64,000 nucleotides of DNA from the NCBI GenBank assembly GCA_002898235.1, contig BEIL01000002.1, positions 51,264 through 115,263 of the forward strand, given 5' to 3'. Positions 3,454 through 60,391 of the stretch are shown here, piece by piece. The translations under genes and the position numbers were made by a program. The notes under the pieces are model-generated. The model was not told the DNA's origin. It made no database searches and saw only the letters and a list, made by a program, of their open reading frames with translations. The stretch is from a bacterium HR35. Lineage in GTDB: Bacteria; Patescibacteriota; Minisyncoccia; UBA6257; HR35. Position 1 is the first letter of the stretch. The number at the start of each line of letters is the position of its first letter.

Positions 3454-5289
3454 ATGAAAAAACTCTCTTTATTTTTAGGTCTCTCACTTTTAGCTTTTTC
3501 TTTCTTTCCTGGTTTTGCTACTAAAGCACAAACTTGCAATCCCGATGCTTTAGTTCCAGTTGCTTATGGCCAAAGAGGAGAAGCTGTTAGAAATGCTCAG
3601 GCTTGTTTAATGGAAGCTGGTTATGATATTCCAGCTGGAGCAACTGGTTATTATGGTTCTCAAACAAAAGCAGCTGTCAAAGCTTTTTATGCTGATTGGT
3701 ATGGAAATTGGGATGGAAGCAGATTGGGTCCTCAAGGAGTTCAACATCTTAAATCAGTTTTAGCAGGAGCTCCTTCTCAACCTTCTCAACCATCCCAACC
3801 ATCTCAACCATCTCAGCAAGATCAAACAGCTGCTCTCGTTGCTGCTGTTTTAGCTGCCCTTCAGCAAATGGGACTTCTTCCTTCAACTTCTACACAACAA
3901 CAAGCTTCTAAAGAGGAAGGCTTCTTGAGAGCAGAAAAAGATCCAACGGTTGCTGCTCCAGTTTTAAGAGAAGGTGAGAGTGGAAGAGTTGCTGGCTTTA
4001 GATTTAGAGCTGATAATGGAGCAGTTACTGTCCAATCCATCTTTTTGAGATGGGGAGGTTCAGTAGCTCCATATCGAGCTATTTCTGCTCTTAAGGTTGT
4101 TGACTCTTCTGGAAATACTCTTTATCAAACTCAAGTTGGTCCTTCAACTTTCCTTCAAGATTCTTCTCTTAATTACTACTTACCTATCACTGGTTTAAAT
4201 GTTCAAGTTCCTAAAAATGGCTACACCTCTGTTTTTGTTGAAGTAACAGTTGTGGGTACTCTTCCAAGCTCCGTTTCTTCAGGTCAATTCTATGTTAATC
4301 AAAATGATGTAAGAGGAGTTGATGGTGCTGGAGTTAATAGATTTGCTCCAGATAGCCCATTAACTTGGAATTTCTCTCTTCAACCATCACTTGCTGGCAA
4401 TGCTAGATTTGTTCTTTCTCTTAATCCCAATACACCAAAACAAGGATATGTTTTTGGCGATCCAGTCGATGGAAAAGCTTATCGAGTAAAAGTTCTCTCT
4501 TTCGATCTTCAAGCTAAAAACGATAACCTAAGAGTTACTCGAGTTGAAGGTAGCGTTACAAATACTTCAACTGTAAATGCAGTTTATCTTGCTCAAGGTT
4601 CTAACGTTATGGATGTTAGAACACCTTCTGCTACCGGAACTTTTGTTTTTGATATCACTCCGTCTAATTTTGTAGTTAATCGAGACCAATCAGTAACCCT
4701 TGATGTTTTAGTTGATTTCACTGCTAATGCTGCTCCAAGCGTAGCTACCCTTACAGTCTCTGTAGCCACAACCTCTGGCGTTAATAGCCTTGGCGATAAT
4801 GTTCAAACTACTTCAACAGTTGTTACTTCTGAACTTTTGAGAGCAGTAAGACTTGGTCCTCGATTTGCAGCAGTTGAAAAAACAATATCTGTAACTCGAG
4901 ATCAAAATAATAGCACCACAACTGTTCAATCTGTTGTCTTTAGAATCAATGTTACAGCCGTAGGTGGAACTTTATATGTTCCAGTTTCTAATACAGCTAC
5001 TATTACTCTAGAAACTGCTTCTGGAACCACTTCTGAAGTTAATGTTTCACCAACAACTGTAAGAGTTGGTTCTACAGTTGTTAGCCCTTCTGGTAGCTAT
5101 TACACTGTTCCTGAGGGTTCCACCTATGAGTTTGAATTTAGAACTTCAGGACAAACATTTACTGGTGCTCAATCTGTAAGAGCTCGCTTCTCATCTTTCG
5201 CTTTTGATAATGATAATTCTGGCAGCGTAATGGATACCGCTTCATTCCTTAATGATCTTCCTGAATTCTGGACAAATTGGAGCAACTAA
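3454..5289 (+). CDS. secreted surface protein: signal peptide, PG_binding_1-like domain, (PSQ)5 linker, long S/T/V/N-rich beta-type region
   Basis: N-terminal MKKLSLFLGLSLLAFSFFPGFATKA signal; GQRGEAVRNAQACLMEAGYD...GYYGSQTKAAVKAF matches the peptidoglycan-binding domain consensus; PSQPSQPSQPSQPSQ repeat; GC and codon usage clearly higher than flanking genes. Confidence 0.6.
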   Translation: MKKLSLFLGLSLLAFSFFPGFATKAQTCNPDALVPVAYGQRGEAVRNAQACLMEAGYDIPAGATGYYGSQTKAAVKAFYADWYGNWDGSRLGPQGVQHLKSVLAGAPSQPSQPSQPSQPSQQDQTAALVAAVLAALQQMGLLPSTSTQQQASKEEGFLRAEKDPTVAAPVLREGESGRVAGFRFRADNGAVTVQSIFLRWGGSVAPYRAISALKVVDSSGNTLYQTQVGPSTFLQDSSLNYYLPITGLNVQVPKNGYTSVFVEVTVVGTLPSSVSSGQFYVNQNDVRGVDGAGVNRFAPDSPLTWNFSLQPSLAGNARFVLSLNPNTPKQGYVFGDPVDGKAYRVKVLSFDLQAKNDNLRVTRVEGSVTNTSTVNAVYLAQGSNVMDVRTPSATGTFVFDITPSNFVVNRDQSVTLDVLVDFTANAAPSVATLTVSVATTSGVNSLGDNVQTTSTVVTSELLRAVRLGPRFAAVEKTISVTRDQNNSTTTVQSVVFRINVTAVGGTLYVPVSNTATITLETASGTTSEVNVSPTTVRVGSTVVSPSGSYYTVPEGSTYEFEFRTSGQTFTGAQSVRARFSSFAFDNDNSGSVMDTASFLNDLPEFWTNWSN

Positions 5290-7944: not shown

Positions 7945-10900
7945 ATGAGACAAAAACAAAAAATTTCTTTTATTAAAAGGTTTTTTACCAAAGAAAATGT
8001 TCATCCCTACGACGAAGTAAATTGGATAAAAACTACAGCTGAAATTCCTGGTTCTGGTTTTAGAATGGAAGATGTAGAATTTCCTGATTTTTACAGCCAA
8101 AATGCAATTAATATCATTGCTTCTAAATATTTCAAAGTAAATAAAGGCAAACAAGAAAAAAGCTTAAAAGAACTTATTGATCGGGTTGTCAAAACCTCTA
8201 AAAAATGGGGATTAGAACAAGGATATTTTGATGAAAAAGAGGCAGAAATTTTTGAAGCAGAATTAACTTATATTTTACTTCATCAATATGCTGCTTTTAA
8301 TTCTCCTGTTTGGTTTAATTTTGGAGTTGAAGGAAGACCTCAAACTGGTGCTGCATGTTTTATCTTAGATGTTGAAGATAGTATGGAGTCAATTTTGGAT
8401 TGGATTAAAACCGAAGGAATGATTTTTAAAGGAGGTTCTGGTTCAGGAGTTAATTTATCAAAACTAAGAGCAAAAGGAGAACCACTTTCAACTGGTGGAG
8501 TTTCTTCAGGGGTTATTTCTTTTATGAAAGCAGCCGATGCTGTTGCTGGAAGTATAAAATCTGGAGGCACGACGAGGAGAGCGGCAAAAATGGTTGTTTT
8601 GAATGCTGACCATCCTGAAATTATGGATTATATTCGAGTTAAAGCTGAAGAAGAAAATAAAGTTAGAGCTTTGATGGAAGCAGGTTATGATATGACTGAT
8701 TTAAACAATCCTTTGTGGCAAAATATTTTCTTTCAAAATGCAAATAATTCAGTAAGAATTCCTGATGCTTTAATGGAGGCAGCAATGAAAGATGGTGAAT
8801 GGAAAACTTATTATCGCACCTCAGGTAAAGTAGCCCAAGTTTATAAAGCTAAAGATATTTTATGGGAAATTGCTAAAGCTGCTTGGGAATGTGGTGATCC
8901 AGGAGTTCAATTCGATGACACTATCCAAAAATGGCATACTTGTAAAAATTCAGGAAGAATTGAAGCAACTAATCCATGTGTTCCAGGTGATACCTTAATT
9001 GCAACAAATGAAGGTTGGAAAAGAATAAAAGATTTAGTTGGCAAAAATCCAATTATTATTACTCAGAAAATAGAAACGCGGACTACATACGGACTATACA
9101 CGGACTATACACGGACAGAACACAGACAACACACGGACAAAAAGGACAAAATAAATATGTCCGATAAATCTATGTCTAGTCCAAAAAAATCCATTAATAA
9201 GTCCGAACAGTCCGTGTTAAGTCCGATAGAGTCTGTTGAAAATCAGGTTGTTGAGAAAAGAGCTTTAAGAGTTTTTAAAACAGGAATCAAGCCAGTTTAT
9301 AAAATAATAACTCGTTCTGGTTATGAATTAAGAGCAACAGAGGACCACCCAATTTATATTGAAGGCAAAGGAGATGTTAAAGTTAAAGACCTTAAACCAG
9401 GAGATAAAGTAAGATTAATCGGTGCCGGCTTTGGTAATAAATCTTTAGATTCAGATATTGCTTTTATGATTGGTTATTTTGCTGGCGATGGAGCTATAAG
9501 TTATGATTACAACCATCAAAGATTTAGTATTTTCTTTACTGGAGGCAATGAAGATATTTATGCTTTAAATTACATCAAAAGCACAATAAATGAAAAACTT
9601 CAATCTAAACACAAAGCTCAAACTAATTTAAGAAGATTAATCTCAGAGTTTGTTGTTGCTACAAGTAGAGAAAATGTTGCTGAAATTTTAAATCAATATT
9701 TTGATTTTCAAAGAAAAATATTTAAAGATTCAGTTTTCGATTTAGACAAAGAATCAATCAAAAATATTCTTAAGGGATTATTTACTGCTGATGGAACAAT
9801 TACTGGTAATCCTCAAAAAGGATTTTATGTTGGTTTAGATAGTTCTTCTTTAGAGCTTTTAAAACAAGTACAGCTTTTGCTTTTAAATTTTGGCATTAAG
9901 TCAAAAATTTATAAAAATAGAAGAAGCAAATTAGAACAATACTTACCTGATTCTCAAAGAAAATTAAAACTTTATCAGGTAAAACAACAACATAGTTTAA
10001 GAATAACAAGAAGTTCAAGAGTAATTTTTGAAAAAGAAATTGGTTTTTATGAATTGCATCAAAAGCAAGAAAAATTAGAAAATATTAATCAAAAATATGA
10101 AGCTTATAAAGACCATCTTTATGATGAAATTAAAGAAATAGTTTTTGATGGCATTGAAGAAGTTTATGATTTAACTGAGCCAGAAACATCTCATTTTGTT
10201 GCTAATGGTATTTTAGTTCACAATTGTGCTGAATATATATTTCTTAACTGGACAAGCTGCAATCTTAGTTCAATTAATCTCTTAAAGTTTCTTAAAGATG
10301 ATAGTAAATTTGATGTTCCTGCATTTCTTCATACTGTTAGAGTAATGTTTTTAGCTCAAGATATTATGGTTTCTAAAGCTGATTATCCTCATCCAAAAAT
10401 TGCTGAAGAAACTAAAAAATACCGAACAATCGGCTTGGGTTATACAAATTTAGGTGCTTTGATTATGGCATTAGGCCTTCCTTATGATTCTGATGAAGCT
10501 CGAGATTTAGCTGCCAGCATTACAGCTTTAATGACAGGCGAAGCTTACAAACTTTCAACTGAAATTTCAGCCAAACTTGGTCCATTTCCTGAATATGAAA
10601 AAAATAAAGAACCAATGCTTGAAGTAATGGAGCTTCATCGTAAAGCATTAAAAAATGTTAATGAAAATGATTTTAATAAAGAGATTTTAAATAAAGCTAA
10701 AGAAGTATGGGATGAAGTAATTGAGCAAGGTAAAAAATATGGTTTTCGTAATGCTCAAGCAACAGTTATCGCGCCTACTGGGACAATAAGTTTTATGATG
10801 GATGCTGATACTACTGGAGTTGAACCTGATTTTGCTTTAGTTAAAATGAAACAACTTGTCGGCGGTGGTTATATGAAAATTGTAAATAAAACAGTTCCTC

Positions 10901-11841
10901 TTGCTTTAAGAAGGCTTGGTTATAGCGAAAAGGAAATCGAAGATATTGTTAAACACTTAGAAGAAACCCAAAATATTGAAACAGCTCCGCATCTTAAACC
11001 AGAACATTTACCTGTTTTTGATTGTGCTATTAAACCACCTGGAGGAAAAAGATATATTCATTGGTTAGGACATGTAAAGATGGTTGCTGCTATTCAACCC
11101 TTCATAAGTGGTGGAATTTCAAAAACCTTCAATATGCCTAATGAAACAACAATTCAAGAAATTTATGATGCTTACTTTACTGCTTGGAAATTAGGAATTA
11201 AATGTTTTTCTGTTTATCGTGATGGTTCAAAAGCAACTCAAGCTTTATATACTGAAAAGAAGGAAAAGAAACCTCAAGAAAAACTTGGTAGAAGAAGGTT
11301 ACCTGATATTAGGCCATCTGAAACTCATAAATTCTCAGTTGGTGGTCATGAGGGTTATCTAACTTATAGCACTTTTGAAGATGGCAGTCTTGGAGAAATC
11401 TTCATCCGAATGGCAAAGCAGGGCAGTACTTTAGCAGGCCTTTTAGATGCTTTTGCAATTGCAGTTTCAATTGCTCTTCAATATGGAGTGCCCTTAAAAG
11501 AACTTGCTAGTAAATTCATTAATATGAGATTTGAACCATTGGGCTTAACTAATAATGAAAAAATAAAAACAGCTACCTCAATAGTGGATTACATATTTAA
11601 ATATTTAGCTTACCGTTTTCTTTCTAAAGATGAATTAGAAGAATTGGGTCTTTTGACTGAAGTTGATAAAGAAAAACTAGTTTTAAAAGAACATCCAACG
11701 CTATTTGAAATAAAAAATAATCCAAACAATAATTTAGCTGAAATTTCAGGCCCCCCATGTGTTCATTGTGGAGGAATAACAATTAAAACTGGTGCTTGTT
11801 ATACTTGTATAAGTTGCGGAGAAACTACAAGTTGTGGCTAA
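7945..11841 (+). CDS. nrdJ: adenosylcobalamin-dependent (class II) ribonucleotide reductase NrdJ, interrupted by an in-frame intein
   Basis: Extein junction TNP|C..HN|CAEYIFLNWTSCNLSSINL restores the RNR active-site motif NPCAE...CNL; C-terminal CxxC..CxxC zinc ribbon; extein length about 882 aa. Confidence 0.75.
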   Translation: MRQKQKISFIKRFFTKENVHPYDEVNWIKTTAEIPGSGFRMEDVEFPDFYSQNAINIIASKYFKVNKGKQEKSLKELIDRVVKTSKKWGLEQGYFDEKEAEIFEAELTYILLHQYAAFNSPVWFNFGVEGRPQTGAACFILDVEDSMESILDWIKTEGMIFKGGSGSGVNLSKLRAKGEPLSTGGVSSGVISFMKAADAVAGSIKSGGTTRRAAKMVVLNADHPEIMDYIRVKAEEENKVRALMEAGYDMTDLNNPLWQNIFFQNANNSVRIPDALMEAAMKDGEWKTYYRTSGKVAQVYKAKDILWEIAKAAWECGDPGVQFDDTIQKWHTCKNSGRIEATNPCVPGDTLIATNEGWKRIKDLVGKNPIIITQKIETRTTYGLYTDYTRTEHRQHTDKKDKINMSDKSMSSPKKSINKSEQSVLSPIESVENQVVEKRALRVFKTGIKPVYKIITRSGYELRATEDHPIYIEGKGDVKVKDLKPGDKVRLIGAGFGNKSLDSDIAFMIGYFAGDGAISYDYNHQRFSIFFTGGNEDIYALNYIKSTINEKLQSKHKAQTNLRRLISEFVVATSRENVAEILNQYFDFQRKIFKDSVFDLDKESIKNILKGLFTADGTITGNPQKGFYVGLDSSSLELLKQVQLLLLNFGIKSKIYKNRRSKLEQYLPDSQRKLKLYQVKQQHSLRITRSSRVIFEKEIGFYELHQKQEKLENINQKYEAYKDHLYDEIKEIVFDGIEEVYDLTEPETSHFVANGILVHNCAEYIFLNWTSCNLSSINLLKFLKDDSKFDVPAFLHTVRVMFLAQDIMVSKADYPHPKIAEETKKYRTIGLGYTNLGALIMALGLPYDSDEARDLAASITALMTGEAYKLSTEISAKLGPFPEYEKNKEPMLEVMELHRKALKNVNENDFNKEILNKAKEVWDEVIEQGKKYGFRNAQATVIAPTGTISFMMDADTTGVEPDFALVKMKQLVGGGYMKIVNKTVPLALRRLGYSEKEIEDIVKHLEETQNIETAPHLKPEHLPVFDCAIKPPGGKRYIHWLGHVKMVAAIQPFISGGISKTFNMPNETTIQEIYDAYFTAWKLGIKCFSVYRDGSKATQALYTEKKEKKPQEKLGRRRLPDIRPSETHKFSVGGHEGYLTYSTFEDGSLGEIFIRMAKQGSTLAGLLDAFAIAVSIALQYGVPLKELASKFINMRFEPLGLTNNEKIKTATSIVDYIFKYLAYRFLSKDELEELGLLTEVDKEKLVLKEHPTLFEIKNNPNNNLAEISGPPCVHCGGITIKTGACYTCISCGETTSCG
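8977..10224 (+). mobile_element. intein (416 aa) with LAGLIDADG homing-endonuclease domain inserted at the RNR catalytic Cys
   Basis: Block A CVPGDTLIATNEG, block B ATEDHPIYIEG, two LAGLIDADG motifs (IGYFAGDGAIS, LKGLFTADGTITG), block F/G ...SHFVANGILVHN followed by the +1 Cys. Confidence 0.85.
9078..9236. repeat. imperfect palindromic array of ~11-nt repeats (cggac units on the left, gtccg units on the right) lying in-frame inside the intein
   Basis: tacacggacta repeated in tandem about 6 times, then mirror-image gtccg-containing units; local centre ggacaaaataaatatgtcc near 9142-9160; GC-richer than surroundings. Confidence 0.6.
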
Positions 11842-18125: not shown

Positions 18126-19341
18126 AAAAGAAGAATTCAAATATACTTTTATTGGACCAGGTTCTTTAATAGGCAAAGAGGAAGACGAAAAAAAAGAAAT
18201 GACTGAATTTAAATCTGTTTCCTTTTCTAAAGAGGAAATACCAATAAATGAACAAGTTATTGCTTCCTCTCCTCCTTTAGAGGAAAAAACTGAAATTAAA
18301 GAAGGCAAATTAACTCTTCAAACGCCTCCAGAAAGAATAGAAGAATTGAAATTAGAAGAAGAGAAAAAAGAAAGTTTTCAACCACCAAATTTAAGCGAAA
18401 TTACTTTTAAAAGAGAAGAGAGGTTTACTCGTCCACGAAAAGAACTTTTAGAAGAAGCAGCAGCTAATTTACCAGAAGAAAAATCTCGTAAAATTGATTT
18501 TTCTAGGTATCTACTTTACCTAATTCCTGCTCTTGTCTTTTTCGTTTTAATTTTTCTTATTATTTATTTCAAGCCTTATCAAGAAATTGTTAAACTATTT
18601 CAAACTAAAAAAGAACCAACTCCTCCGCCTCCAGAAGAACCAATAATCTTACCTAAAGCTGAAGAAAAACAATCAGAAACTAGCACTGAAGAAAAAAGAG
18701 TTGAAACAATTTCTTTGCCTATTGAAAAGCAAAAAACTGAAAATCAAATTTTAAATCAACCACTAACTCCTTCCCAACCAACTTCTCAAATAAAATTATT
18801 TCCCTTTCTTCCTCAATATCAAATTAAATTAACTAACCCAACAGAAGGAGAAATTCAAAAAGCTTTAGAAGAATTTAATTCTCGTTATCAACTTCCAAAT
18901 AACTTCTTAGTTTTAAATTTAAATTACCAAAATCAAAAACTTCCTATTGATTTACTTCTAAATTATTTTTTCAAAGATAAAAACTTCCAGGAAAAAATAA
19001 AACCCAATCTTTCAACCAATTATGAAATTTTAGTTTACCAATCTCTATCTCGTAAATATTTAGTTTTAGTTTTTGAAATAAATAATTTTCAAGAAATAGA
19101 AAAATTAAATTTAGCTTGGGAAAAAACTTTTTCTTTAGAAAAAATAAAGAATTTTTATTTTGATTTTAAACCGACGAAAGTTTTGTCTAAAAACTTTATT
19201 TCTGAAAGTTATGATAAGATTAAATATAGGGTGATTTTTTTAGACAATAATAATGTTTTCGCTTGGTTTATTTTTAAAAATTATTTAGTTTATTTGACTT
19301 CAGAAAAAACAATTCCTCAATTAAATAATCTTCTTAGATGA
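18109..19341 (+). CDS. hypothetical single-pass membrane-anchored protein
   Basis: E/K-rich N-terminus, one TM (YLLYLIPALVFFVLIFLIIYF), Pro-rich linker. Confidence 0.4.
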   Translation: MSEESKKEEFKYTFIGPGSLIGKEEDEKKEMTEFKSVSFSKEEIPINEQVIASSPPLEEKTEIKEGKLTLQTPPERIEELKLEEEKKESFQPPNLSEITFKREERFTRPRKELLEEAAANLPEEKSRKIDFSRYLLYLIPALVFFVLIFLIIYFKPYQEIVKLFQTKKEPTPPPPEEPIILPKAEEKQSETSTEEKRVETISLPIEKQKTENQILNQPLTPSQPTSQIKLFPFLPQYQIKLTNPTEGEIQKALEEFNSRYQLPNNFLVLNLNYQNQKLPIDLLLNYFFKDKNFQEKIKPNLSTNYEILVYQSLSRKYLVLVFEINNFQEIEKLNLAWEKTFSLEKIKNFYFDFKPTKVLSKNFISESYDKIKYRVIFLDNNNVFAWFIFKNYLVYLTSEKTIPQLNNLLR

Positions 19342-19670
19342 AGGATTTAGAAACATTTAAAGCAAAATTAATTAAAGAAAGAGAAGAGATAGCTTTTCTT
19401 TTAGAAACTTTAAACAAAGAAGAGACCGATGTTCTTAGGGAAGAAGCCTACGAAACTAGTGATTGGGCTAATAAATATGAATTAAGAGAAGAATTTCATT
19501 TACAAAAAGAAGATTTAGAGAAGAGACTGGAATTAATAGATAAAGCTTTAAAGAAAATCGAAAATAACTCTTATGGTTTTTGTGAAAATTGCGGCAAGGA
19601 AATTGAAGAAGCTCGATTAGAAATTGATCCAGCTGCTCCTTATTGTCGAAACTGCGCTTCTAAATTTTAA
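19338..19670 (+). CDS. DksA/TraR-family C4 zinc-finger protein
   Basis: CENCGKEIEEARLEIDPAAPYCRNC preceded by a coiled-coil region. Confidence 0.6.
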   Translation: MKDLETFKAKLIKEREEIAFLLETLNKEETDVLREEAYETSDWANKYELREEFHLQKEDLEKRLELIDKALKKIENNSYGFCENCGKEIEEARLEIDPAAPYCRNCASKF

Positions 19671-22867: not shown

Positions 22868-23948
22868 AGAAATTGAAAGTATTTTTATTTTTTTAAGCAC
22901 AATTATTGGTTTAGGAGTTTTTGTTTTACCTTATGCTTTTTTACAAGGCAAGTTGTGGTTTATTTTTTGGTTAGGTTTTTGGTTTATTGTTTTTTATATA
23001 ATCCATTTAATTTTTGCTGAAATTATTTTTCAAACAAAAGAAAAACATAATTTACCTGGTTTAGCTGCAATTTATCTTCATCCTAATCTTAAGCATTTAG
23101 TATGGATTTTTGATTATTTTGGAATGATGGGTGTTTTTTGGATTTATCTTTTATCCTTAGAAAAATTTTGGGGGACTATCTTTCCTGATAAAACTTTCTT
23201 AGTTAAACTTATTTTTGTCTTTTTTAATCTTTTTTTTATTACTAAAAATCTCAAAATTTTTGCTGGCTTTGAAACTATTTTAGGAATAAGCATTATTTTT
23301 CTTTTTTTGATAATTTCTTTTTGGTTCGGAATTAAAGCTGATATTAATAACTTTACCAATCTTTTTAATTTCCAAGGAGATTTCTTTTTGCCTTACGGAG
23401 TTCTACTTTTTGCTTTTTCAGGTATTTCAGCTGTACCCCTTGTTTTTGATCTTGTTGGCAAAGAAAAAGAAAAATTCAGAAAAATCAATTTATTTTCTTT
23501 AGTTTTAGTGACTTCAATTTATCTTTTTTATTCTTTAAGTATCATTGGCTTTTTAGGAAATAAAACTTCCGAAATTTCTTTAGATGTTTTAAAACCCTTT
23601 ATCCCCTTGCCTCTTTTTCTATTTATTTTGATTTTAGTTACTTTTAATATTATGTTAGTTGATTTAGCTTTTTATTTAAAAAGAGGTCTGCAAGCTGATT
23701 ATGGTCTTTCAGAAAGAAGAACTAATTTAATATTAATTTTTTCGATTTTACTTCTCCTTTTTCTTCCCGCAAATTCTTTAATTAAAATTATTAGTCTTAT
23801 TAGCGATGTTTTTCTTGGTTTCAATCTTTTGATTTTAAATTTAATTTATTTAAAACTTAAAGAAAAAAAATTTTTTATTTTCCCTAAGTTTTTAATTATT
23901 TTTATTTCTTTAATTTTGTTTTTGGGAATGATCTATGAAATTTTTTAA
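22854..23948 (+). CDS. polytopic membrane protein (about 10 TM), possible permease
   Basis: Hydrophobic ORF; no diagnostic motif identified. Confidence 0.35.
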   Translation: MKISKEIESIFIFLSTIIGLGVFVLPYAFLQGKLWFIFWLGFWFIVFYIIHLIFAEIIFQTKEKHNLPGLAAIYLHPNLKHLVWIFDYFGMMGVFWIYLLSLEKFWGTIFPDKTFLVKLIFVFFNLFFITKNLKIFAGFETILGISIIFLFLIISFWFGIKADINNFTNLFNFQGDFFLPYGVLLFAFSGISAVPLVFDLVGKEKEKFRKINLFSLVLVTSIYLFYSLSIIGFLGNKTSEISLDVLKPFIPLPLFLFILILVTFNIMLVDLAFYLKRGLQADYGLSERRTNLILIFSILLLLFLPANSLIKIISLISDVFLGFNLLILNLIYLKLKEKKFFIFPKFLIIFISLILFLGMIYEIF

Positions 23949-25161
23949 ACCTAAAGGATTTACTATTATTGAAATTTTAATTGTACTTTTTGTAATTTCA
24001 GTTTTGGCTGTTATTTTATTTTTTGCCTTTAACACTACTGACATTATTAAAAGAACTAGAGATGCTAAAAGACTTAATGATCTTCAAGCAATTAATTCTG
24101 CTATTCAAGCTTTACTTAATCAAAATCCTGAAATCAATCTGGGTACAGATAATTTGGTTTATCTTTCCTTGCCTGATTCTAATCCTAATTGCTCTTCTTA
24201 TCCAAATTTACCGCCCATATTTTCTCCTTTTTCTTATCGCTGTGCTTCTACTTCAACTTTTAGAAAAACTGATGGTAATGGTTGGCTACCTTTAAATTTT
24301 TCCAGCTCTCTTTTTTCTTTTTCTTCTTTACCAATCGATCCTTTAAATAATGGTGATTATTTTTATGTTTATTTTAAGCAAGGAAATAAATATAAACTGA
24401 CAGCCAGAATGGAATCAGAAGCCTTTGGTTATCAAATGATTAATGATGGTGGCATTGAACCTCTTTTATATGAGTTAGGAAATGATTTAAGTTTGCCAAC
24501 ACCCCAAAGCGGTTTGGTTTTATATTTACCTTTTGAAGAAGGAACAGGAACAATAACTTACGATTTAAGTGGATATAATAATAACGGCACTCTTTATAAT
24601 TTTAATTTTACTACTTCTTCGGGCTGGGTAAAGGGAAAAATAGGTTGGGGTTTAGCTTTCGATGGTGTGGATGATTATGTAAGTGTAGCCACCTCAACCA
24701 CTTTGGATTTAAGAAATAAAGATTTTTCAGTTATCTATTGGATTTATAGATTTTCTACGACTTCTAATTATCAAAGAGTTTTTTCTCAAAACGAAGAAAG
24801 CAGTACTGATTGTACTAATTTGAATTTTGGTATTTCTAATTCAGATACTGCTTATTTTGATATTTATAATTGTGGAGGTACTACAGGTTTAAGAGGAACT
24901 ATTTTTTTAAATAAAAATCAGTGGTGGAATTTAGTATTTGTTAATAATAAATCAACTTCTATCAATGATTATGTTTTTGTAAATGGAAAATTAGATATTA
25001 ATGGCTACAGGGATCCTTATCAAGGGCCTCCTGGTGATATTAAACTAAGCGTTCCTTGGACAGCTTATCAATTTTATGGAGTTATCGATGAAGTGAGGGT
25101 TTATTTAAGATCACTTAATAATCTTGAAGCAAAATTGATTTACCTTTATGGTATTAAATAG
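23935..25161 (+). CDS. type IV pilin-like protein with C-terminal LamG/concanavalin-like domain
   Basis: Prepilin leader and N-terminal helix KG|FTIIEILIVLFVISVLAV; beta-rich C-terminal domain. Confidence 0.6.
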   Translation: MKFFKPKGFTIIEILIVLFVISVLAVILFFAFNTTDIIKRTRDAKRLNDLQAINSAIQALLNQNPEINLGTDNLVYLSLPDSNPNCSSYPNLPPIFSPFSYRCASTSTFRKTDGNGWLPLNFSSSLFSFSSLPIDPLNNGDYFYVYFKQGNKYKLTARMESEAFGYQMINDGGIEPLLYELGNDLSLPTPQSGLVLYLPFEEGTGTITYDLSGYNNNGTLYNFNFTTSSGWVKGKIGWGLAFDGVDDYVSVATSTTLDLRNKDFSVIYWIYRFSTTSNYQRVFSQNEESSTDCTNLNFGISNSDTAYFDIYNCGGTTGLRGTIFLNKNQWWNLVFVNNKSTSINDYVFVNGKLDINGYRDPYQGPPGDIKLSVPWTAYQFYGVIDEVRVYLRSLNNLEAKLIYLYGIK

Positions 25162-27385: not shown

Positions 27386-27429
27386 CATACCACCCAACTT
27401 TTTGTTTTAAATTTTACTATAAGATTGTG

Positions 27430-27794
27430 GGGTGGAAATTACGATTTTTATAGAAAGAAAAGAACAGAAGAATTTGAAGCCAGAACGAGAGCTTGCGAAG
27501 CTCAAGAAAAAAAGAAGAAACAACTTTTAGAATCTATTGAAAAATTAAAAAAACAAGCTCAAAGGTTTGAAAAAATAAACGTAGATGCTTTTTAGAAGAA
27601 TACAAATAGCGGCTATTCTTTCAAAGAACTCTTATGTTTTAATTTTAGATGAACCAACTAATCATTTAGATGTTTATACTGTTGAAGAATTAGTGGAAGC
27701 TTTAAGAGATTATCAAGGAACAATAATTCTTGTCTCTCATGACGAATCTTTTATTAACGATATCCAACCCAATAAGGTTATAGATTTGCTATAA
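27430..27794 (+). pseudogene. ABC-F ATPase remnant (linker-like segment plus Walker B/H-loop) with internal deletion and frameshift
   Basis: ...EKLKKQAQRFEKINVDAF* then ..RRIQIAAILSKNSYVLILDEPTNHLD...ILVSHDESFIN; Walker A and signature regions are missing. Confidence 0.55.
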
Positions 27795-27879
27795 AAATTA
27801 AATTTTTACTTCAGGATTATTTCTACATTATTTCTCAATTTCTTAAGAAATTAAGAAATATAGAAAACTAATAAAACCC

Positions 27880-28160
27880 TCAATTTCCCTTCAATTTTTA
27901 ATCTTGGTTATTGCAATGTATAATTAGCGATCCACAATACCATTCGTGAGATAGCAAAGAGCGCCAGCATTGAAGGCCGGCGATCTCTTCGCCGAACTCT
28001 ATCGGTATGTAATCGGACAAGATTGCAGACCGAAGGTCGGTTGGCTCTTCGAAACATTGGGACGAGACAAAGTTCTCCATCTTCTTGCGTAAAACTTGAG
28101 AGCGGAGTATACTGCTTCGTCATCTTTTAATTTAATTCTTTAATCCTATAAGTTTTATCC
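27880..28160. other. GC-rich (~45-50%) segment of unknown nature between two pseudogenes; open in three of six reading frames, several GC hairpins
   Basis: For example cggcga-tctct-tcgccg hairpin; composition very different from flanking ~28% GC DNA. Confidence 0.3.
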
Positions 28161-28790
28161 TATAGCTGTCGCCCTTTGCTGTTTATTATAATGGTTTGTG
28201 AATTCGAAATACTAATAACTTTATTTGATGTAGTCTTTTGATAGTAAGACAATTCTCTACCATAAGAAGGATTATAATGAGGCAAAATTTCAAAGTCAAT
28301 TAATACAAGACCTTCAAAATCAGTTAAACCAACATCATTGTGGTCAGGATCTATTGAAACTGCAATTTGGATTGTTGGTGCAAGTATAATTGCTCCAATA
28401 CTTCCGCCAATATATATTTCCGCCGCTATCAAGTAATTTTACTATCGTATCTTTAAAATGTGCTTCGCGAGCATACTTTAATAACCTAAACGTATTACCA
28501 CCGCAGACATAAATTAAGTTTTATTTTGAAAAATCTGCATGCGGTTTATTTTCAATATCGATAAAATCGATAGTACTAAAACCAAAGCTCCGAAATTGGG
28601 ACTCAGATAGTTTTGAATATTTGTTATTCTCTTTTCCCTCGGCGGCTGTAGTTACAACAGCAACAGATTTATGTGGTAATAAATTAAAAAATCTTTCTGC
28701 TGCCTGTTGGACTGGTTCGGCTGACAAACCCGTTGAAGTAAGGATAATTATTCCTCGGTTATTCGTTGTAAAAATAATTTATAAGAATTA
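28160..28790 (-). pseudogene. peptidase S51 (PepE/cyanophycinase-like) pseudogene, interrupted by stop/frameshift
   Basis: IYIGGSIGAIILAPTIQIAVSIDPDHNDVGLTDFEGLVLIDFEILPHYNP aligns with PepE [43 protein letters not shown]; N-terminal piece SVAVVTTAAEGKE lies in another frame. Confidence 0.6.
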
Positions 28791-49828: not shown

Positions 49829-50341
49829 ATGACTATTAAAGACGATTTTGAACATTTTGTCGTTGATTTAGCTCGGGTAGCTAAAGTAACTGAGGGAGGT
49901 AAAACTTTAAGAATTAGAGCAGCGGTGGTTATTGGCGATCGTCAAGGAAATGTTGGTTTTGGTATAGGTAAAGGTTATGATACAGCCGAAGCTGTTAGAA
50001 AAGCTATTAATGAAGCTAAGAAAAATTTAATTAAAGTACCAATTGTTAATGGAACAGTTCCTTTTGAAATTAAAGCTAAATTTAAAAGTGCAGCTGTTTT
50101 GATAAAACCAGCAAGACCAGGTAAAGGTTTAATTGCTGGCAGTGTTATTAGGTCAATTCTTTATTTAGCTGGCTATACTGATGTAAGCGCAAAAATCATT
50201 GGGGTAACTAAAAATTCCTTAGTTAATGCTTTAGCTGGAATTAGAGCTTTAGAGAAATTAGCTAAAACTTATGAAAATAAATTAAAATTAAAAGAGCAAT
50301 TAGCCGTTAAAAAGAAAAATGATTCAAATACATCAAATTGA
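49829..50341 (+). CDS. rpsE: 30S ribosomal protein S5
   Basis: RVAKVTEGGKTLRIRAAVVIGD...GIGKG. Confidence 0.9.
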   Translation: MTIKDDFEHFVVDLARVAKVTEGGKTLRIRAAVVIGDRQGNVGFGIGKGYDTAEAVRKAINEAKKNLIKVPIVNGTVPFEIKAKFKSAAVLIKPARPGKGLIAGSVIRSILYLAGYTDVSAKIIGVTKNSLVNALAGIRALEKLAKTYENKLKLKEQLAVKKKNDSNTSN

Positions 50342-50747
50342 TTTTAAATTAAAAAAGAAAAAAAGAATTGGTCGGGGAGGAAAAAGAGGTAATTATTCGG
50401 GTAGAGGAATAAAAGGACAAAAAGCAAGAGCTGGAGCTAGAATTCGTCCAGCTTTAAGGGATGTTATTTTAAAGTTTCCTAAATTAAGAGGAAGTGGCAA
50501 TAAAAAAATTGAAAAAAAATTAATAACTATCAATATTGAAGCAATAGATAAAAATTTTCAAGCTGGAGAATCGGTTAATCAGGAAACACTTCGAAGAGTT
50601 ATTAAAATTCCTAAAAGTTGGAAAAGCTTTCGAGTTAAAATTTTAGGTAAAGGTAAATTAACCAAATCTTTAATCTTTTCAAAGGATTTTCTTTTTTCAG
50701 CCAAAGCTTTAGAAGAAATTAAAAAAAGCGGCAGTGAAATTAAATGA
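50319..50747 (+). CDS. rplO: 50S ribosomal protein L15 (directly after rpsE; no rpmD/L30)
   Basis: GRGGKRGNYSGRGIKGQKARAG. Confidence 0.9.
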   Translation: MIQIHQIDFKLKKKKRIGRGGKRGNYSGRGIKGQKARAGARIRPALRDVILKFPKLRGSGNKKIEKKLITINIEAIDKNFQAGESVNQETLRRVIKIPKSWKSFRVKILGKGKLTKSLIFSKDFLFSAKALEEIKKSGSEIK

Positions 50748-52018: not shown

Positions 52019-52625
52019 TAAGGGATTAATTATTTTTTTAACTGGAGGACCAGCTTCTGGTAAAGATACTCAAGCAGCTCTTTTGGCTAAAAAACTAAAA
52101 GCTAAAAAACTAAATGTTTCTGAAATTTTGGATAGTTTTTTTCAACAAACTAAAAAAAGATATTTACGAATAGGTAAAAAATTGATTAATCTTCAAAGAG
52201 AAAGGGAAAAAAGATTTAGTGGTAATTTGGTTTCTTTTGATTTAGTTGCTTATTTAATGAAAGAAGAAATTTTTAAAAATTTTTCTCTTAACCGACCATT
52301 AATAGTTTTAGGCGGTCCTCGGAGTTTAAAAGAGGCTAAAACCTATCTTAATTTAGTTAAAAAATTAAAATGTTCATTTCTTTTTATTTATTTAGAAGTA
52401 AGTGAAGAAGAAATGATAAGAAGATCGCTTAAAAGACAAAGAAGCGATGCTCTTGACGAGCCAGCTAAAATTAAAAAAAGAATAGAACTCTTTAAAAAAT
52501 ATACCCTACCAGCTTTAAATTTTTTGAAAAAAAGAAAACTTTTAACTCAAATTAATGGCGAGGGGGAAGTAAAAGAAATTCATCAAGAGATTTGGCAAAA
52601 AATAAAAAATTTTTCAAATTTCTAA
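52008..52625 (+). CDS. adk: adenylate kinase (start trimmed from track ORF 51963)
   Basis: P-loop GGPASGKDTQA; short-LID form; follows secY. Confidence 0.7.
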   Translation: MKFNKGLIIFLTGGPASGKDTQAALLAKKLKAKKLNVSEILDSFFQQTKKRYLRIGKKLINLQREREKRFSGNLVSFDLVAYLMKEEIFKNFSLNRPLIVLGGPRSLKEAKTYLNLVKKLKCSFLFIYLEVSEEEMIRRSLKRQRSDALDEPAKIKKRIELFKKYTLPALNFLKKRKLLTQINGEGEVKEIHQEIWQKIKNFSNF

Positions 52626-54350
52626 TGGGTTAATTTTTATTTTTTCAAATTGATAAATCTTTAAAACTTCTTGAAGTTTGAAATCCTCTTTTTGAGTTCG
52701 AATAATAATTTCTAAAAAATATCTTTTTTTAAATCTAAAAGGTTTAGCTAAAATAGGTCCGATAACTTCAGCTTCTTTCAAAATATTTTTAAGTTCTTGA
52801 CTAATTTTCAGCATTTGTTTTTGAAGTTTATCAAAATCGCTACTTCCGTTAATTAGCTTAATTATTTTATAAAAAGGATTCAATCTTAAAAGTTCTCGTT
52901 CTTTAATTATTTCTTGAAAATAACTGCCTTGATAAATTTTTTTTTCAATTTCTAAATTTCTTAAATTGCTAACCAAAAAAATATTTTTGACTTTTTCCTG
53001 AAAGAAAGCTAGGATTCTTAAATACTTTTCTCTTAAAAAAGGATCAGAAGTCAAATAAAAGTTTTCAAAATTAAAGAAAATTAAAACTTCGGCTTCTGGT
53101 AAATGACCAGAAATAAGATTTAAACTGCCTAGAAGAAAAAATTTACTTTTGTTTTTTAAGACCTTTAAAATTTTTTTTCTCTTTTTTAGCACTAAATAAG
53201 TTTCTTCAGGATAATTTTTTTTAAGGAATTTATAAAAAGAAATTAAACCTAATCTTTTAAAACCCAATTCGAGCTTTTGCTGACAAAAAGGACAAAGGTT
53301 TTTATCAAATTTTATCTCTCGAGAACAAAGAAGACAAAAAATTTTATCTTCTTTAAAAACTAAATTGCTTTGACATCGAGGACACTTTAGAGAATTGAAA
53401 CAAAGTTCGCATCTAAGACCATAAACTATTTTTTGGGGGAAAAAGAAAATTATTTTTTGATAAGTTTTGATTATTTTTAAAATTTCTTCTAAATCATTAA
53501 TTACTTCGATTTTTAACGGCAGTTTAATTTCTAGTTTTAAAAACTTTACTGATTGCAAAGAAGGCAGGCGGTCTATTAAAATGAGAGGTATTCTCTTTAT
53601 TTGGGCTAACTTAAAAATTAAATCACGATAATCAAAATTAACTTTTTTAAAATTATCATAATAGAAAAAACTACCTTCTCGAAAAACAATTAACTGATCA
53701 ATATTTTTCCAAGGCAAAAAAACTAAATGCTTAGGAATTAAAATTGTTTTCTTATCTCTTTTTTCTAATTCCTGGGCTAATTTTTTTATTTTTTCTTTAT
53801 TCCAAGGCGGAGAGAATTTTAAATAAGGCAATTTTAGTTTTTCAAAGAATTGAGAAACTTCTTCGAAAAAACTAATTTCTGGCACAATTAAAAGATTTCT
53901 TTTTTTAACTAAAATCTTTGAATCTAAATCTTCTCTAAAAGAAATTTTAAAATTTCTCTTTATTTTTTTTTCAGAAGCTTGACTATTAATTTCTAAAAAA
54001 GCTTTAGCTGGAAAATAAAAAAAGGAAAATATCGAAGCTAAAGAAAAACCAAAATAACCAGCCAAAAATTGAGCAAATTGAATTTCTTCTTTTCTGATTA
54101 GAGTTTTTTCTTTAATTATTTTTCTTATTTTTTTTAATTTAGGAATCAAGTTAATTATTTCTTGACGAGATTTTTCTAATTCTTTTATCTCGAAAACATA
54201 CCCAGGGATAATTTTTTTCCGAAAATCAATTTCTACCAAAGCTCCCTTTTTTAAGGGAAAATCAGAAAAATAAGTAAAGTAGTCTGGCGAATTGGGAGGT
54301 AAAGGAATTAGTGGTATAATATTAGCAATTAAATATTTTCTTTTAATCAT
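52614..54350 (-). CDS. PriA-like primosomal protein N' homolog with degenerate helicase motifs
   Basis: N-terminal 3'-DNA-binding-like region; LLIVPEISFFEEV resembles motif Ia LVLVPEIALTPQ; LIVFREGSFFYY in place of VVVDEEHDSSYK; four CxxC zinc-binding pairs; PriA-like C-terminus; no GxGKT Walker A. Confidence 0.5.
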   Translation of the reverse strand: MIKRKYLIANIIPLIPLPPNSPDYFTYFSDFPLKKGALVEIDFRKKIIPGYVFEIKELEKSRQEIINLIPKLKKIRKIIKEKTLIRKEEIQFAQFLAGYFGFSLASIFSFFYFPAKAFLEINSQASEKKIKRNFKISFREDLDSKILVKKRNLLIVPEISFFEEVSQFFEKLKLPYLKFSPPWNKEKIKKLAQELEKRDKKTILIPKHLVFLPWKNIDQLIVFREGSFFYYDNFKKVNFDYRDLIFKLAQIKRIPLILIDRLPSLQSVKFLKLEIKLPLKIEVINDLEEILKIIKTYQKIIFFFPQKIVYGLRCELCFNSLKCPRCQSNLVFKEDKIFCLLCSREIKFDKNLCPFCQQKLELGFKRLGLISFYKFLKKNYPEETYLVLKKRKKILKVLKNKSKFFLLGSLNLISGHLPEAEVLIFFNFENFYLTSDPFLREKYLRILAFFQEKVKNIFLVSNLRNLEIEKKIYQGSYFQEIIKERELLRLNPFYKIIKLINGSSDFDKLQKQMLKISQELKNILKEAEVIGPILAKPFRFKKRYFLEIIIRTQKEDFKLQEVLKIYQFEKIKINPLEI

Positions 54351-55359
54351 GATTTTTAAATTAGGAATTGATTTGGGAACAGCTAATTCTAATGTTTATC
54401 TTCCGGAAAGAGGAGTAGTTTTAAGCGAACCAACAGTTGTTGCTTATGATGAAAAGACTAATAGAATAATTGCTGTTGGGAAAGAAGCAAAAGAAATGAT
54501 TGGCAAAACTCCAAGAGAGATTAAAATTTATAGACCTCTGAAGGAAGGTGTTATTGCTGATTATAAGGCTACTTTAGCTATTTTAAGATACTTTCTAAGT
54601 AAAGTCAAAATTACTAGATTTTTTAAACCAATTTTAGTAATTTCAGTTCCAGCCGGAATTAGTTCAACTGAAAGACGAGCTATAATTGATGCCGGTCTAG
54701 AAGCTGGTGCTCGAGAAGTTTATCCAATTAAAGAACCAATTTTAGCTGCTTTAGGAGCAGAAATGCCAATTCAAAGTCCGGCTGGAAATATGATTGTTAA
54801 TATTGGTGGAGGTACAAGTGAAATAGCTGTTATTTCTTTGGGAGGAATAGTTACTTTTGAATCACTAAAGATTGCTGGAGATAAAATGGATGAAGCTATT
54901 AGGGAGTACTTGAGAAGGAAATTTAATTTAGCTGTTGGTGAAAAAACAGCTGAGATGATCAAAATTCAAGTTGGTTCAGCTTTGCCTTTAAGAAACAATA
55001 ATCATAAAAACGGAGAATTAGAAATGGTAGTTAATGGTGTAGATTATTTAACTGGTCTACCCAAAAGTATTAAAATTAATTCTAATCAAGTAGCTGAAGC
55101 TTTGCAAAAAGAATTAAAAGAAATAATTAATGGCATAAAAAGAGTTTTGGCATTAACCCCACCAGAACTCGTAGCGGATGTTATGGAAAGGGGAATTGTT
55201 CTTTCAGGAGGAGGGGCTCTTTTAAGAAAAATTGATGAGCTTATTAGTCTTCAAACTTCAATTAAATCTATTGTAGCTGAAGATCCTTTATTTGCAGTTG
55301 CTCGAGGAACTGGTAAAGTTTTAGAAAAAATTGACCTCTATCAAAAATTAGTTTCATGA
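54349..55359 (+). CDS. MreB/Mbl-family actin-like protein (paralog 1; start trimmed from track ORF 54292)
   Basis: GIDLGTANSNVYL..., phosphate-binding loops, NIGGGTSEIAV. Confidence 0.85.
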   Translation: MIFKLGIDLGTANSNVYLPERGVVLSEPTVVAYDEKTNRIIAVGKEAKEMIGKTPREIKIYRPLKEGVIADYKATLAILRYFLSKVKITRFFKPILVISVPAGISSTERRAIIDAGLEAGAREVYPIKEPILAALGAEMPIQSPAGNMIVNIGGGTSEIAVISLGGIVTFESLKIAGDKMDEAIREYLRRKFNLAVGEKTAEMIKIQVGSALPLRNNNHKNGELEMVVNGVDYLTGLPKSIKINSNQVAEALQKELKEIINGIKRVLALTPPELVADVMERGIVLSGGGALLRKIDELISLQTSIKSIVAEDPLFAVARGTGKVLEKIDLYQKLVS

Positions 55360-59374: not shown

Positions 59375-60391
59375 ATGGTTAAATTTTTAAAGGAGCTTTT
59401 TTTAGGAATTGATTTAGGCACAGCAACTACCAAAATTTATCTTAAAGGTAAAGGATTTCTTAAGGAAGTGCCAACAGTTATTGCTTTTAATAAAAGAAAT
59501 AACGAAATAATTGCTATTGGTTATGAAGCTCAAAAAATGCTCGGCCGAAGTCCGGCTAATATTGAAGTTGTTAAACCATTGACTCACGGAGTAGTGACTA
59601 ATTTTGATGAAGCTCTTTATTTTCTCAATTTTCTTTTAGAAGAATTAAAAAAAGATTATTTACCAATTTTGGGTACTAAATTTTTGATTGGAATTCCGTT
59701 AGATTTAACCGAGGTTCAAAAAAGAGGAGTTGTTGATGTAGGTTTAGGTGCTGGAGCTAATAAAGTTTATTTAATTGAAGAACCTATTGCCTTTGCTTTA
59801 GGAGCTAATCTTGACATCGAAGAAGCTAAGGGGCTTTTAGTTGTTGATATTGGCGGAGGTACAACTGATATTGCTTTAATTTCCTTAGGAGGCATTGTTT
59901 TAGGTAGAAGTATTAGAATTGGTGGAGAGACTTTTAATCAAAATATAATTGATTATTTAAAAGAAAAATATGAGGTAGTTATTGGCGAAGGTCAAGCAGA
60001 AAGAGCAAAAATCTCTATAGGGACAATTATTGAAAAAAACCCGAATACTTTTTTGATTAAGGGGAGAGATATTTATTCTGGCTTACCAAAAGAAATCAAT
60101 TTTACCTCTCAGGACTTAAAAGAAAGTATTACTGATTCTCTTTTAGAAATAGCTAACCATCTTAGGGATATAATAAATTTAGCTCCCCCAGATCTTTTAG
60201 GCGATATTAGTTCTTTGGGGATTTTTTTAGGAGGCGGTGGTTCTTTAATTGAGGGCATCGGCCAATTTTTAGAAAAAGAAATAAAAGTTAAAGTTAATTT
60301 AGTTGAGGAATCAAAATTTTCGGTTATTCGAGGTTTAGGTAAAATTATAGAAGATTTTAATCATTATCAAAAACTTCTTTTGAATATTTAA
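59375..60391 (+). CDS. mreB: rod-shape protein MreB (paralog 2, heads the mreB-mreC-mreD-mrdA cluster)
   Basis: GIDLGTATTKIYL, VDIGGGTTDIALIS. Confidence 0.85.
   Translation: MVKFLKELFLGIDLGTATTKIYLKGKGFLKEVPTVIAFNKRNNEIIAIGYEAQKMLGRSPANIEVVKPLTHGVVTNFDEALYFLNFLLEELKKDYLPILGTKFLIGIPLDLTEVQKRGVVDVGLGAGANKVYLIEEPIAFALGANLDIEEAKGLLVVDIGGGTTDIALISLGGIVLGRSIRIGGETFNQNIIDYLKEKYEVVIGEGQAERAKISIGTIIEKNPNTFLIKGRDIYSGLPKEINFTSQDLKESITDSLLEIANHLRDIINLAPPDLLGDISSLGIFLGGGGSLIEGIGQFLEKEIKVKVNLVEESKFSVIRGLGKIIEDFNHYQKLLLNI

Follow-up and report, generated by a model that had tools for sequence, protein, structure and literature searches.

The window analysed here is a 64,000-nt (64-kb) stretch of bacterium HR35, a member of Patescibacteriota (GenBank assembly GCA_002898235.1, contig BEIL01000002.1, positions 51,264 to 115,263 of the forward strand), and all positions below are counted from its first letter. 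On its minus strand, at 52614..54350, the list of open reading frames (ORFs) contains a 578-amino-acid ORF with an ATG start and a stop codon at 52614..52616, which encodes a PriA-like protein. The motif content makes it very likely that this protein is derived from PriA and catalytically dead. An earlier note, made from the sequence alone, had proposed a helicase-dead PriA at this place, and the proposal is supported by our analysis: the Walker A P-loop is absent, other residues stand in for motifs II and III, and a deletion has removed the arginine-finger segment. The PriA-specific 3'-DNA-binding domain (3'BD), cysteine-rich region (CRR) and C-terminal domain (CTD) are kept. The losses extend beyond those described in that note and also comprise motif III, the motif VI segment and the winged-helix (WH) domain. 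Based on these motif losses, ATP binding or hydrolysis at the canonical site, translocation and unwinding are predicted to be impossible for the protein. We consider it probable that this PriA ortholog, from a Parcubacteria/Paceibacterota-type member of Patescibacteria, has become an obligate pseudohelicase, serving as an ATP-independent scaffold for fork recognition and helicase loading.

Profile searches recovered the PriA-like termini that had been recognized by eye. Pfam matches above the gathering scores were obtained for PriA_3primeBD (PF17764; residues 15-109, 37.5 bits vs. 22.7), the double zinc ribbon Zn_ribbon_6 (residues 322-362), and PriA_C (PF18074; residues 492-564, 30.0 bits vs. 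26.9), and neither DEAD nor Helicase_C was matched in the same scan. The TIGR00595 equivalog profile gives the protein 86.2 bits, below its cut-off of 230.35 bits, and the other PriA models of NCBIfam give 37-65 bits vs. cut-offs of 763-1105. A phmmer search against PDB sequences weakly matched E. coli and Klebsiella PriA (E about 1e-3), with the tetrapeptide FREG standing opposite the catalytic DEEH. Regular-expression searches of the whole protein found zero GK[ST], [AG]x4GK, DExH/D/Q or RxGR motifs, and the two alternative frames contain 61-72 stops and no P-loop; an intact, divergent Walker A or B motif had therefore not been overlooked.

The motifs were located on an alignment of the window protein with 11 close homologs, two intermediate forms, five intact PriAs and PriA of E. 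coli MG1655; all segments given below lie on the minus strand. The 3'BD occupies residues 1-112 (54015..54350), as delimited by PF17764 and the E. coli alignment. Here, F26-T-Y27 aligns with the E. coli pocket F16-D17-Y18 and K73 aligns with K61 (Y18 and K61 being among the 3'-end pocket residues named in PMC5778457), and Y27 is conserved in at least 90% of 67 dead-family members. According to alignment gaps and low model confidence, residues 113-135 (53946..54014) form a linker in place of both the WH domain and the P-loop. The gaps face E. coli residues 106-231: the WH domain (E. coli about 110-199, ~90 residues) is absent, with ~15 residues standing opposite E. coli 106-200, and Walker A (E. 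coli G224-T231) falls within the deleted or replaced stretch, in line with the lack of GxGKT noted previously. Intact PriAs near the dead family likewise have a shortened WH domain, which is thus not universal in PriA.

RecA-like lobe 1, predicted to be catalytically dead, comprises residues 136-272 (53535..53945), as defined by alignment, strand order of the predicted sheet, and the ratio of nonsynonymous to synonymous substitution rates (dN/dS). Motif Ia is partly kept, LIVPEISFF (152-161) vs. LVPEIGLT in E. coli, and the motif-Ia-like string quoted in the earlier note, LLIVPEISFFEEV, is present at residues 152-164. The motif II position indeed reads LIVFREGSFFYY (220-231), in which FREG (223-226) is aligned to E. 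coli D320-E321-E322-H323 by both HMMER and MAFFT. It is directly followed by an aromatic-enriched motif IIa, the aromatic-rich loop (ARL), with the sequence SFFYYDNFKKVNFDYRD (227-243; dead motif II and ARL together at 53622..53684). This loop aligns with the E. coli ARL K328-Y335, F239 being opposite the essential Y335, and G226, F229, Y230, F234, K235, F239 and Y241 in this region are invariant in the clade. In motif III, SAT is replaced by DRL (260-262). RecA-like lobe 2 is divided by the CRR insertion into a first part, residues 273-311 (53418..53534; alignment and model), and a second part, residues 361-475 (52926..53270; alignment and dN/dS), which carries the clade-specific conserved block FFNFENFYLTSDPFLREKYLRIL. 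Motif VI (QxxGRAGR) has been lost by a six-residue deletion, leaving QEKV where GRAGRAGK stands. The CRR itself (residues 312-360, 53271..53417; alignment and Zn_ribbon_6) contains the four CxxC pairs seen before (C314/317, C323/326, C339/342 and C353/356), corresponding to two predicted Zn sites. All eight cysteines align with E. coli C436...C479 and are the most conserved residues of the protein, seven being invariant and C326 conserved in at least 90% across the 67 dead-family members. The CTD covers residues 476-578 (52617..52925; PF18074, invariant columns and model confidence), and its residues R485, P492 and G531-P532 are common to intact PriAs.

Structure prediction, which had been suggested as a check, yielded a confident model matching PriA folds. 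The AlphaFold2 model, generated from a 17-sequence alignment, has a mean predicted local distance difference test (pLDDT) score of 85 and a predicted template-modelling (TM) score of 0.82. The CTD reaches pLDDT 85-97, and the only weak stretch is residues about 111-130 (pLDDT 54-60), i.e., the linker replacing the WH domain and the P-loop. When the model was compared with the PDB by Foldseek, the top nine matches were all PriA (8FAK, 6DCR, 4NL4, 6DGD and 4NL8; E 1e-30 to 6e-21, TMq 0.61-0.71), and the next family, WRN/RecQ-like, reached a TM score of ~0.31. The second-best match was 6DCR, an E. coli construct with the WH domain deleted (E 1.9e-27, TMq 0.70), and its high rank fits the missing WH domain of the window protein.

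The loss of several catalytic motifs and a whole domain, as well as the annotation of the closest relatives as hypothetical proteins at NCBI, would fit a functionless relic, that is, a pseudogene in progress. Such a reading is effectively refuted by strong purifying selection and by the many similar proteins that make up a large family, and the gene shows no decay. In each of the orthologs (96, 84, 58, 57, 50 and 46% identity), the ORF is intact, spans 572-579 codons and begins with the same conserved N-terminus, and an identical 578-amino-acid protein is present on a 61.6-kb Logan contig. The long N-terminus is kept in all orthologs, and the ATG start is favoured for this reason. The overall dN/dS, calculated by the Nei-Gojobori method, lies between 0.10 and 0.15 in five pairs of orthologs whose dS is unsaturated. 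By domain, the dead RecA lobes have values of about 0.10 (lobe 1, 0.07-0.14; second part of lobe 2, 0.10-0.13), compared with 0.12-0.25 for the 3'BD and 0.06-0.12 for the CTD, so that the dead lobes are equally constrained. The 12 clade sequences share 62 invariant columns down to 33% identity. Moreover, new conserved blocks of the clade occupy the exact former places of catalytic motifs: EGSFFYYDxFKxxNFDYR directly after the dead motif II and FFNFENFYLSSDPFLREKYLRIL at the position of motifs V-VI. Together with the confident fold and more than 130 diverged cluster representatives, nearly all of which retain all eight cysteines, these data leave little room for decay.

To assess how widespread the family is, 1.84 billion cluster representatives were searched with a profile made from the clade. 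This search matched 7051 proteins at E<=1e-3, and 118 proteins passed E<=1e-30. A total of 161 full-length sequences from the searches were classed by their aligned motif state. The dead class, with no Walker A, DExH/Q or GRxGR, accounts for 131 of them; all eight cysteines are found in 129 of these 131, and ~15 residues replace the WH domain. Only 18 sequences are fully intact (median 703 amino acids), and 12 are partial, for example with DEEQ kept and the P-loop gone. Sequences without both Walker A and GRxGR (138, i.e., the 131 dead forms and seven partial forms retaining DExH alone) have a median length of 631 amino acids. A profile built from 67 dead forms mostly matches canonical PriAs in a database of named proteins, at ~500 bits. 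These matches indicate that the dead family is homologous to PriA, and they were uninformative on taxonomy. In a quick neighbour-joining tree based on a fast alignment, which long-branch attraction may affect, 140 of the 143 non-intact sequences fall into one clade containing zero intact PriA. The window protein belongs to a monophyletic subclade of 22 representatives, which is also the most derived one, and partial forms lie nearer the root. This crude tree suggests one ancient loss followed by progressive erosion, an interpretation that we hold loosely.

Most family representatives are unlabelled metagenome proteins, so that taxonomic breadth is established only in part; cluster look-ups gave few names, and one on the nearest intact and partial forms yielded hardly any taxonomy. 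The informative labels on dead forms all point to Patescibacteria/Parcubacteria, apart from one odd label given below. They include Patescibacteria group, Paceibacterota and one metagenome-assembled genome (MAG) labelled 'Saccharibacteria'; in addition, forms labelled Candidatus Yanofskybacteria and Parcubacteria group were confirmed as dead by regular expressions. Two dead forms (P0115 and P0335) are labelled just '[bacterium]', and one bears the odd label 'Candidatus Pacearchaeota archaeon', which is probably a mis-binned contig of the Candidate Phyla Radiation (CPR). Judged from aligned motifs, the dead-motor form of PriA appears to be the rule across a broad and varied group of ultra-small CPR/Patescibacteria bacteria and not an isolated case. 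The product names of dead PriAs were found to be inconsistent, namely 'hypothetical protein' (Patescibacteria, P0083), 'primosomal protein N'' (Pacearchaeota, P0324), and 'Helicase PriA essential for oriC/DnaA-independent DNA replication' (Parcubacteria, P0026/P0168). Full-text literature searches retrieved nothing on PriA or replication restart in CPR/Patescibacteria.

Fast evolution of CPR proteins in general was also considered as a cause of the degeneration. It was ruled out by two motif-intact controls. RecG, encoded in the same window (1128-3221, plus strand, 697 amino acids), retains GETGAGKT and DEQQ and scores 604 bits on TIGR00643, near the equivalog cut-off, and thereby serves as an internal control. 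A PriA found by genome scan in Peribacteria, another CPR lineage, is intact as well (GVTGSGKT, DEEH and GRAGR). Therefore, the degeneration is specific to PriA and to a lineage.

PriA helicase motifs have been described as conserved in nearly all bacteria, with Deinococcus-Thermus as the only published exception (PMC4504706). PriA of D. radiodurans, which is without ATPase and unwinding activities, still binds single-stranded DNA (ssDNA; Kd about 215 nM), fork DNA (about 108 nM), and DnaB (PMC4504706). The window protein resembles this Deinococcus-Thermus pseudohelicase (Lopper, Boone & Morrow 2015, PMC4504706) in being a natural ortholog that has lost catalytic residues of motifs I and II and kept the remainder. 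However, in Deinococcus-Thermus the Walker A loop is still there, with Lys changed to Arg, and motifs I and II match poorly (PMC4504706), whereas in the window protein the P-loop segment is gone. In addition, the latter is much shorter at 578 amino acids, has motif III replaced and both motif VI and the WH domain missing, and belongs to another, very large radiation, Patescibacteria. Because the lesions differ (K to R vs. P-loop deletion), the dead PriAs of the two groups are likely of independent origin, and by alignment the lesions of the window protein are more extreme than those of this precedent.

A second point of comparison is provided by E. coli PriA K230R/A/D (priA300), in which a motor-dead PriA still assembles the primosome and supports PriA-PriB restart (PMC5778457). 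K230R has no ATPase, helicase or translocase activity, and PriA-PriB restart is still supported both in vivo and in vitro; the scaffold function is therefore separable from the motor (PMC5778457). Unlike the window protein, these variants are engineered point mutants of full length, with the other motifs intact, and depend on PriB and DnaT. Compared with canonical PriA (TIGR00595/PRK05580; 4NL4, 6DGD and 8FAK), the domain order and fold of the window protein are the same except for the WH domain (TM 0.70-0.71), whereas its profile score is 86 vs. 230 bits and motifs I, II, III and VI as well as the WH domain are missing. The WH-less E. coli PriA 6DCR, among the best structural matches, differs in being an engineered deletion in a catalytically intact helicase. 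Since the window protein lacks the defining helicase features and stays below the equivalog threshold, it should not be classed as a 'replication restart helicase'.

It is also conceivable that the protein is still an NTPase or translocase acting through a non-canonical nucleotide site, or that it serves as DNA-binding subunit to a motor provided in trans. Purifying selection acts on the RecA lobes as strongly as on the remainder of the protein, the acidic D-E residues at motif II are kept in 39 of the 131 members of the wider dead family, and E. coli PriA has been proposed to bind nucleotide at a second site (PMC5778457). Nevertheless, the clade has neither the P-loop, the catalytic acidic pair (F-R-E-G), motif III nor the arginine finger, and the P-loop and helix region is a short low-confidence linker. 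A single K230R substitution already abolishes the ATPase of E. coli PriA (PMC5778457). We therefore regard retained NTPase or motor function as very improbable.

From the retention of the 3'BD, ARL, CRR and CTD, we infer that dead PriA has roles in DNA binding, partner recruitment and restart. Known functions of these parts are that the ARL crosslinks to the fork junction (PMC5175346, where its function is described) and that the CRR swings round lagging-strand ssDNA and licenses partner binding (PMC13594977). A reasonably likely scheme for the scaffold and restart mechanism, drawn by analogy, is as follows. Dead PriA would recognize abandoned forks or D-loops without ATP, and the basic, aromatic-rich surface of the dead lobes, with its enlarged motif IIa loop, would grip the ssDNA of the lagging-strand template together with the CRR. 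The CRR/CTD surface would then bring in DnaB, the replicative helicase, either by direct contact or with the help of SSB or another adaptor, and restart would proceed without PriA motor activity. Other enzymes would take over fork remodelling, unwinding or regression, for instance the RecG of the window, which is a candidate supplier of the fork-remodelling activity that dead PriA lacks. A more far-reaching version may well prove wrong and is offered tentatively: in Parcubacteria/Paceibacteria-type Patescibacteria, which make up a considerable share of bacterial diversity, the sole PriA could be an adaptor working without ATP, in which the dead RecA lobes have taken on a new task as a clamp that holds ssDNA by aromatic residues (enlarged motif IIa and the new conserved block FFNFENFY...DPFLREKYLRIL). 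Restart, possibly also general DnaB loading in these minimal genomes, could then be motorless and use partners other than PriB/DnaT or DnaD/DnaB/DnaI. PriB and DnaT are not known outside a subset of Proteobacteria.

Several observations weigh against the scaffold reading, in addition to the crudeness of the tree mentioned above. Pfam scans of 20 unannotated ORFs of the window detected no DnaB, loader, SSB, DciA, PriB or DnaD, and DnaT was likewise not seen in the window; the recruitment step is thus unsupported by genomic context, as no partner is encoded there. Residue D17 of the E. coli pocket is Thr in the window protein, and the aligned intact PriAs also have T or S at this position. The protein is basic (charge +47, pI 9.8), which counts weakly as evidence, since a basic charge is common to most proteins encoded by this AT-rich genome. 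A second nucleotide site, weaker and of unmapped location, has been reported in E. coli PriA, so nucleotide binding as such is still possible (PMC5778457). Finally, an intact second priA may exist elsewhere in the genome: a tblastn search of the window with five intact and two dead PriAs revealed none, nor was any found in orthologous loci of ~20 kb, and the search for a second copy was limited to these regions. The only other tblastn match, at about 1870-2410, was rejected as a second PriA because it corresponds to RecG according to NCBIfam.

The last result bears on whether dead PriA could be a specialized paralog that exists beside an intact PriA and has another role, for example as a fork regulator or competitor or in connection with the mreB-holB cluster. 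The window lies in AT-rich DNA (25-35% GC), and the priA-like gene is convergent with adk, directly past the end of the S10/spc ribosomal-protein cluster (...rpsE-rplO-secY-adk). The earlier note had correctly placed it where the spc operon normally continues with map-infA-rpmJ; signatures of infA, rpmJ, map, rpsM and rpoA were found nowhere in the window. On the opposite flank are a divergent mreB paralog and then holB, frr and rseP, and the order secY-adk/priA/mreB-holB-frr is conserved at orthologous loci (57-96% identity). The paralog proposal can draw on this conserved divergent arrangement with the mreB paralog and holB, in which start codons overlap, on the new strictly conserved motifs that the clade has evolved in its dead lobes, and on the fact that the second-priA search is confined to the window and the ~20-kb loci. 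On the other hand, no second PriA-like sequence occurs in the window, where RecG is the sole other helicase match, and CPR genomes are small and have few paralogs. In addition, the dead forms constitute one large clade apart from intact PriAs, as expected for orthologous replacement and not for recurrent duplication, and NCBI MAGs of Parcubacteria and Yanofskybacteria annotate the dead proteins as primosomal protein N'. A paralogous role is thus unlikely, and replacement of the PriA ortholog by a pseudohelicase is preferred.

The junctions of the gene are tight on both sides. The 3' ends of adk and the priA-like gene overlap by 12 nt (52614-52625), and this overlap is 11-12 nt in the orthologous loci L001, L009, L011 and L012. 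On the other side, the ATGs of the priA-like gene (54350..54348, minus strand) and the mreB paralog (54349..54351, plus strand) share the palindrome CATG at 54348-54351, with zero intergenic DNA between them. As the orthologs have conserved N-termini on both sides, the promoters must sit within the coding sequence of the neighbour. A promoter-like site, TTGGGA-17-TATAAT with an extended -10, is present at 54292-54320, but such sites are no more frequent near the gene than the AT-rich background would give (15 sites vs. 9.2 +/- 2.8). The first MreB paralog (54349-55359, plus strand) belongs to an operon-like run with holB. The second lies less than 6 kb away (59375-60391, plus strand), followed by mreC, a 133-amino-acid ORF and a PBP2-type transpeptidase, and this two-MreB arrangement is kept in orthologous contigs.

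Several other genes of the window were also recorded. A class II (B12-dependent) ribonucleotide reductase of 1298 amino acids (7945-11841, plus strand) is interrupted by an intein, with Intein_splicing at residues 419-760 and a LAGLIDADG_3 homing-endonuclease domain at 607-700. A secreted-looking protein of 611 amino acids (3454-5289, plus strand) has a peptidoglycan-binding domain and a PSQPSQPSQPSQ repeat; its gene lies where the GC content of the window is highest (0.33-0.35 vs. about 0.27) and may have been horizontally acquired, as its composition is unlike that of its neighbours. In the ribosomal-protein cluster, rpmD (L30) is missing from its place between rpsE (S5) and rplO (L15), which are direct neighbours (49829-50747). 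L30 is reportedly absent from CPR bacteria, in agreement with the assignment to Patescibacteria. A run of short ORFs at 27425-28727, comprising an ABC-ATPase fragment (...ILDEPTNHLD..., 27585-27794) and several matchless minus-strand ORFs, looks like gene remnants or an unannotated region, and Rfam at gathering thresholds gave nothing in it. Additional genes encode a DksA/TraR-type C4 zinc-finger protein of 110 amino acids (19338-19670, plus strand) and a type IV pilin-like protein of 408 amino acids (23935-25161, plus strand), in which a Laminin_G_3/ConA-like lectin domain is joined to a pilin-like part with an N-terminal methylation motif.

By discarding the ATP site, this large and ancient family, which is under strong constraint, has in effect separated the functions of PriA in a natural experiment. 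The outcome suggests that what PriA cannot do without is the recognition of forks and the recruitment of the helicase, and it bears on the question of why the PriA motor is kept although laboratory strains manage without it. For annotation, the consequence is that current labels hide the fact that dead PriAs cannot be helicases. The family also offers minimal scaffolds (about 580-640 amino acids) for structural work, and points to an unfamiliar restart pathway in CPR bacteria.

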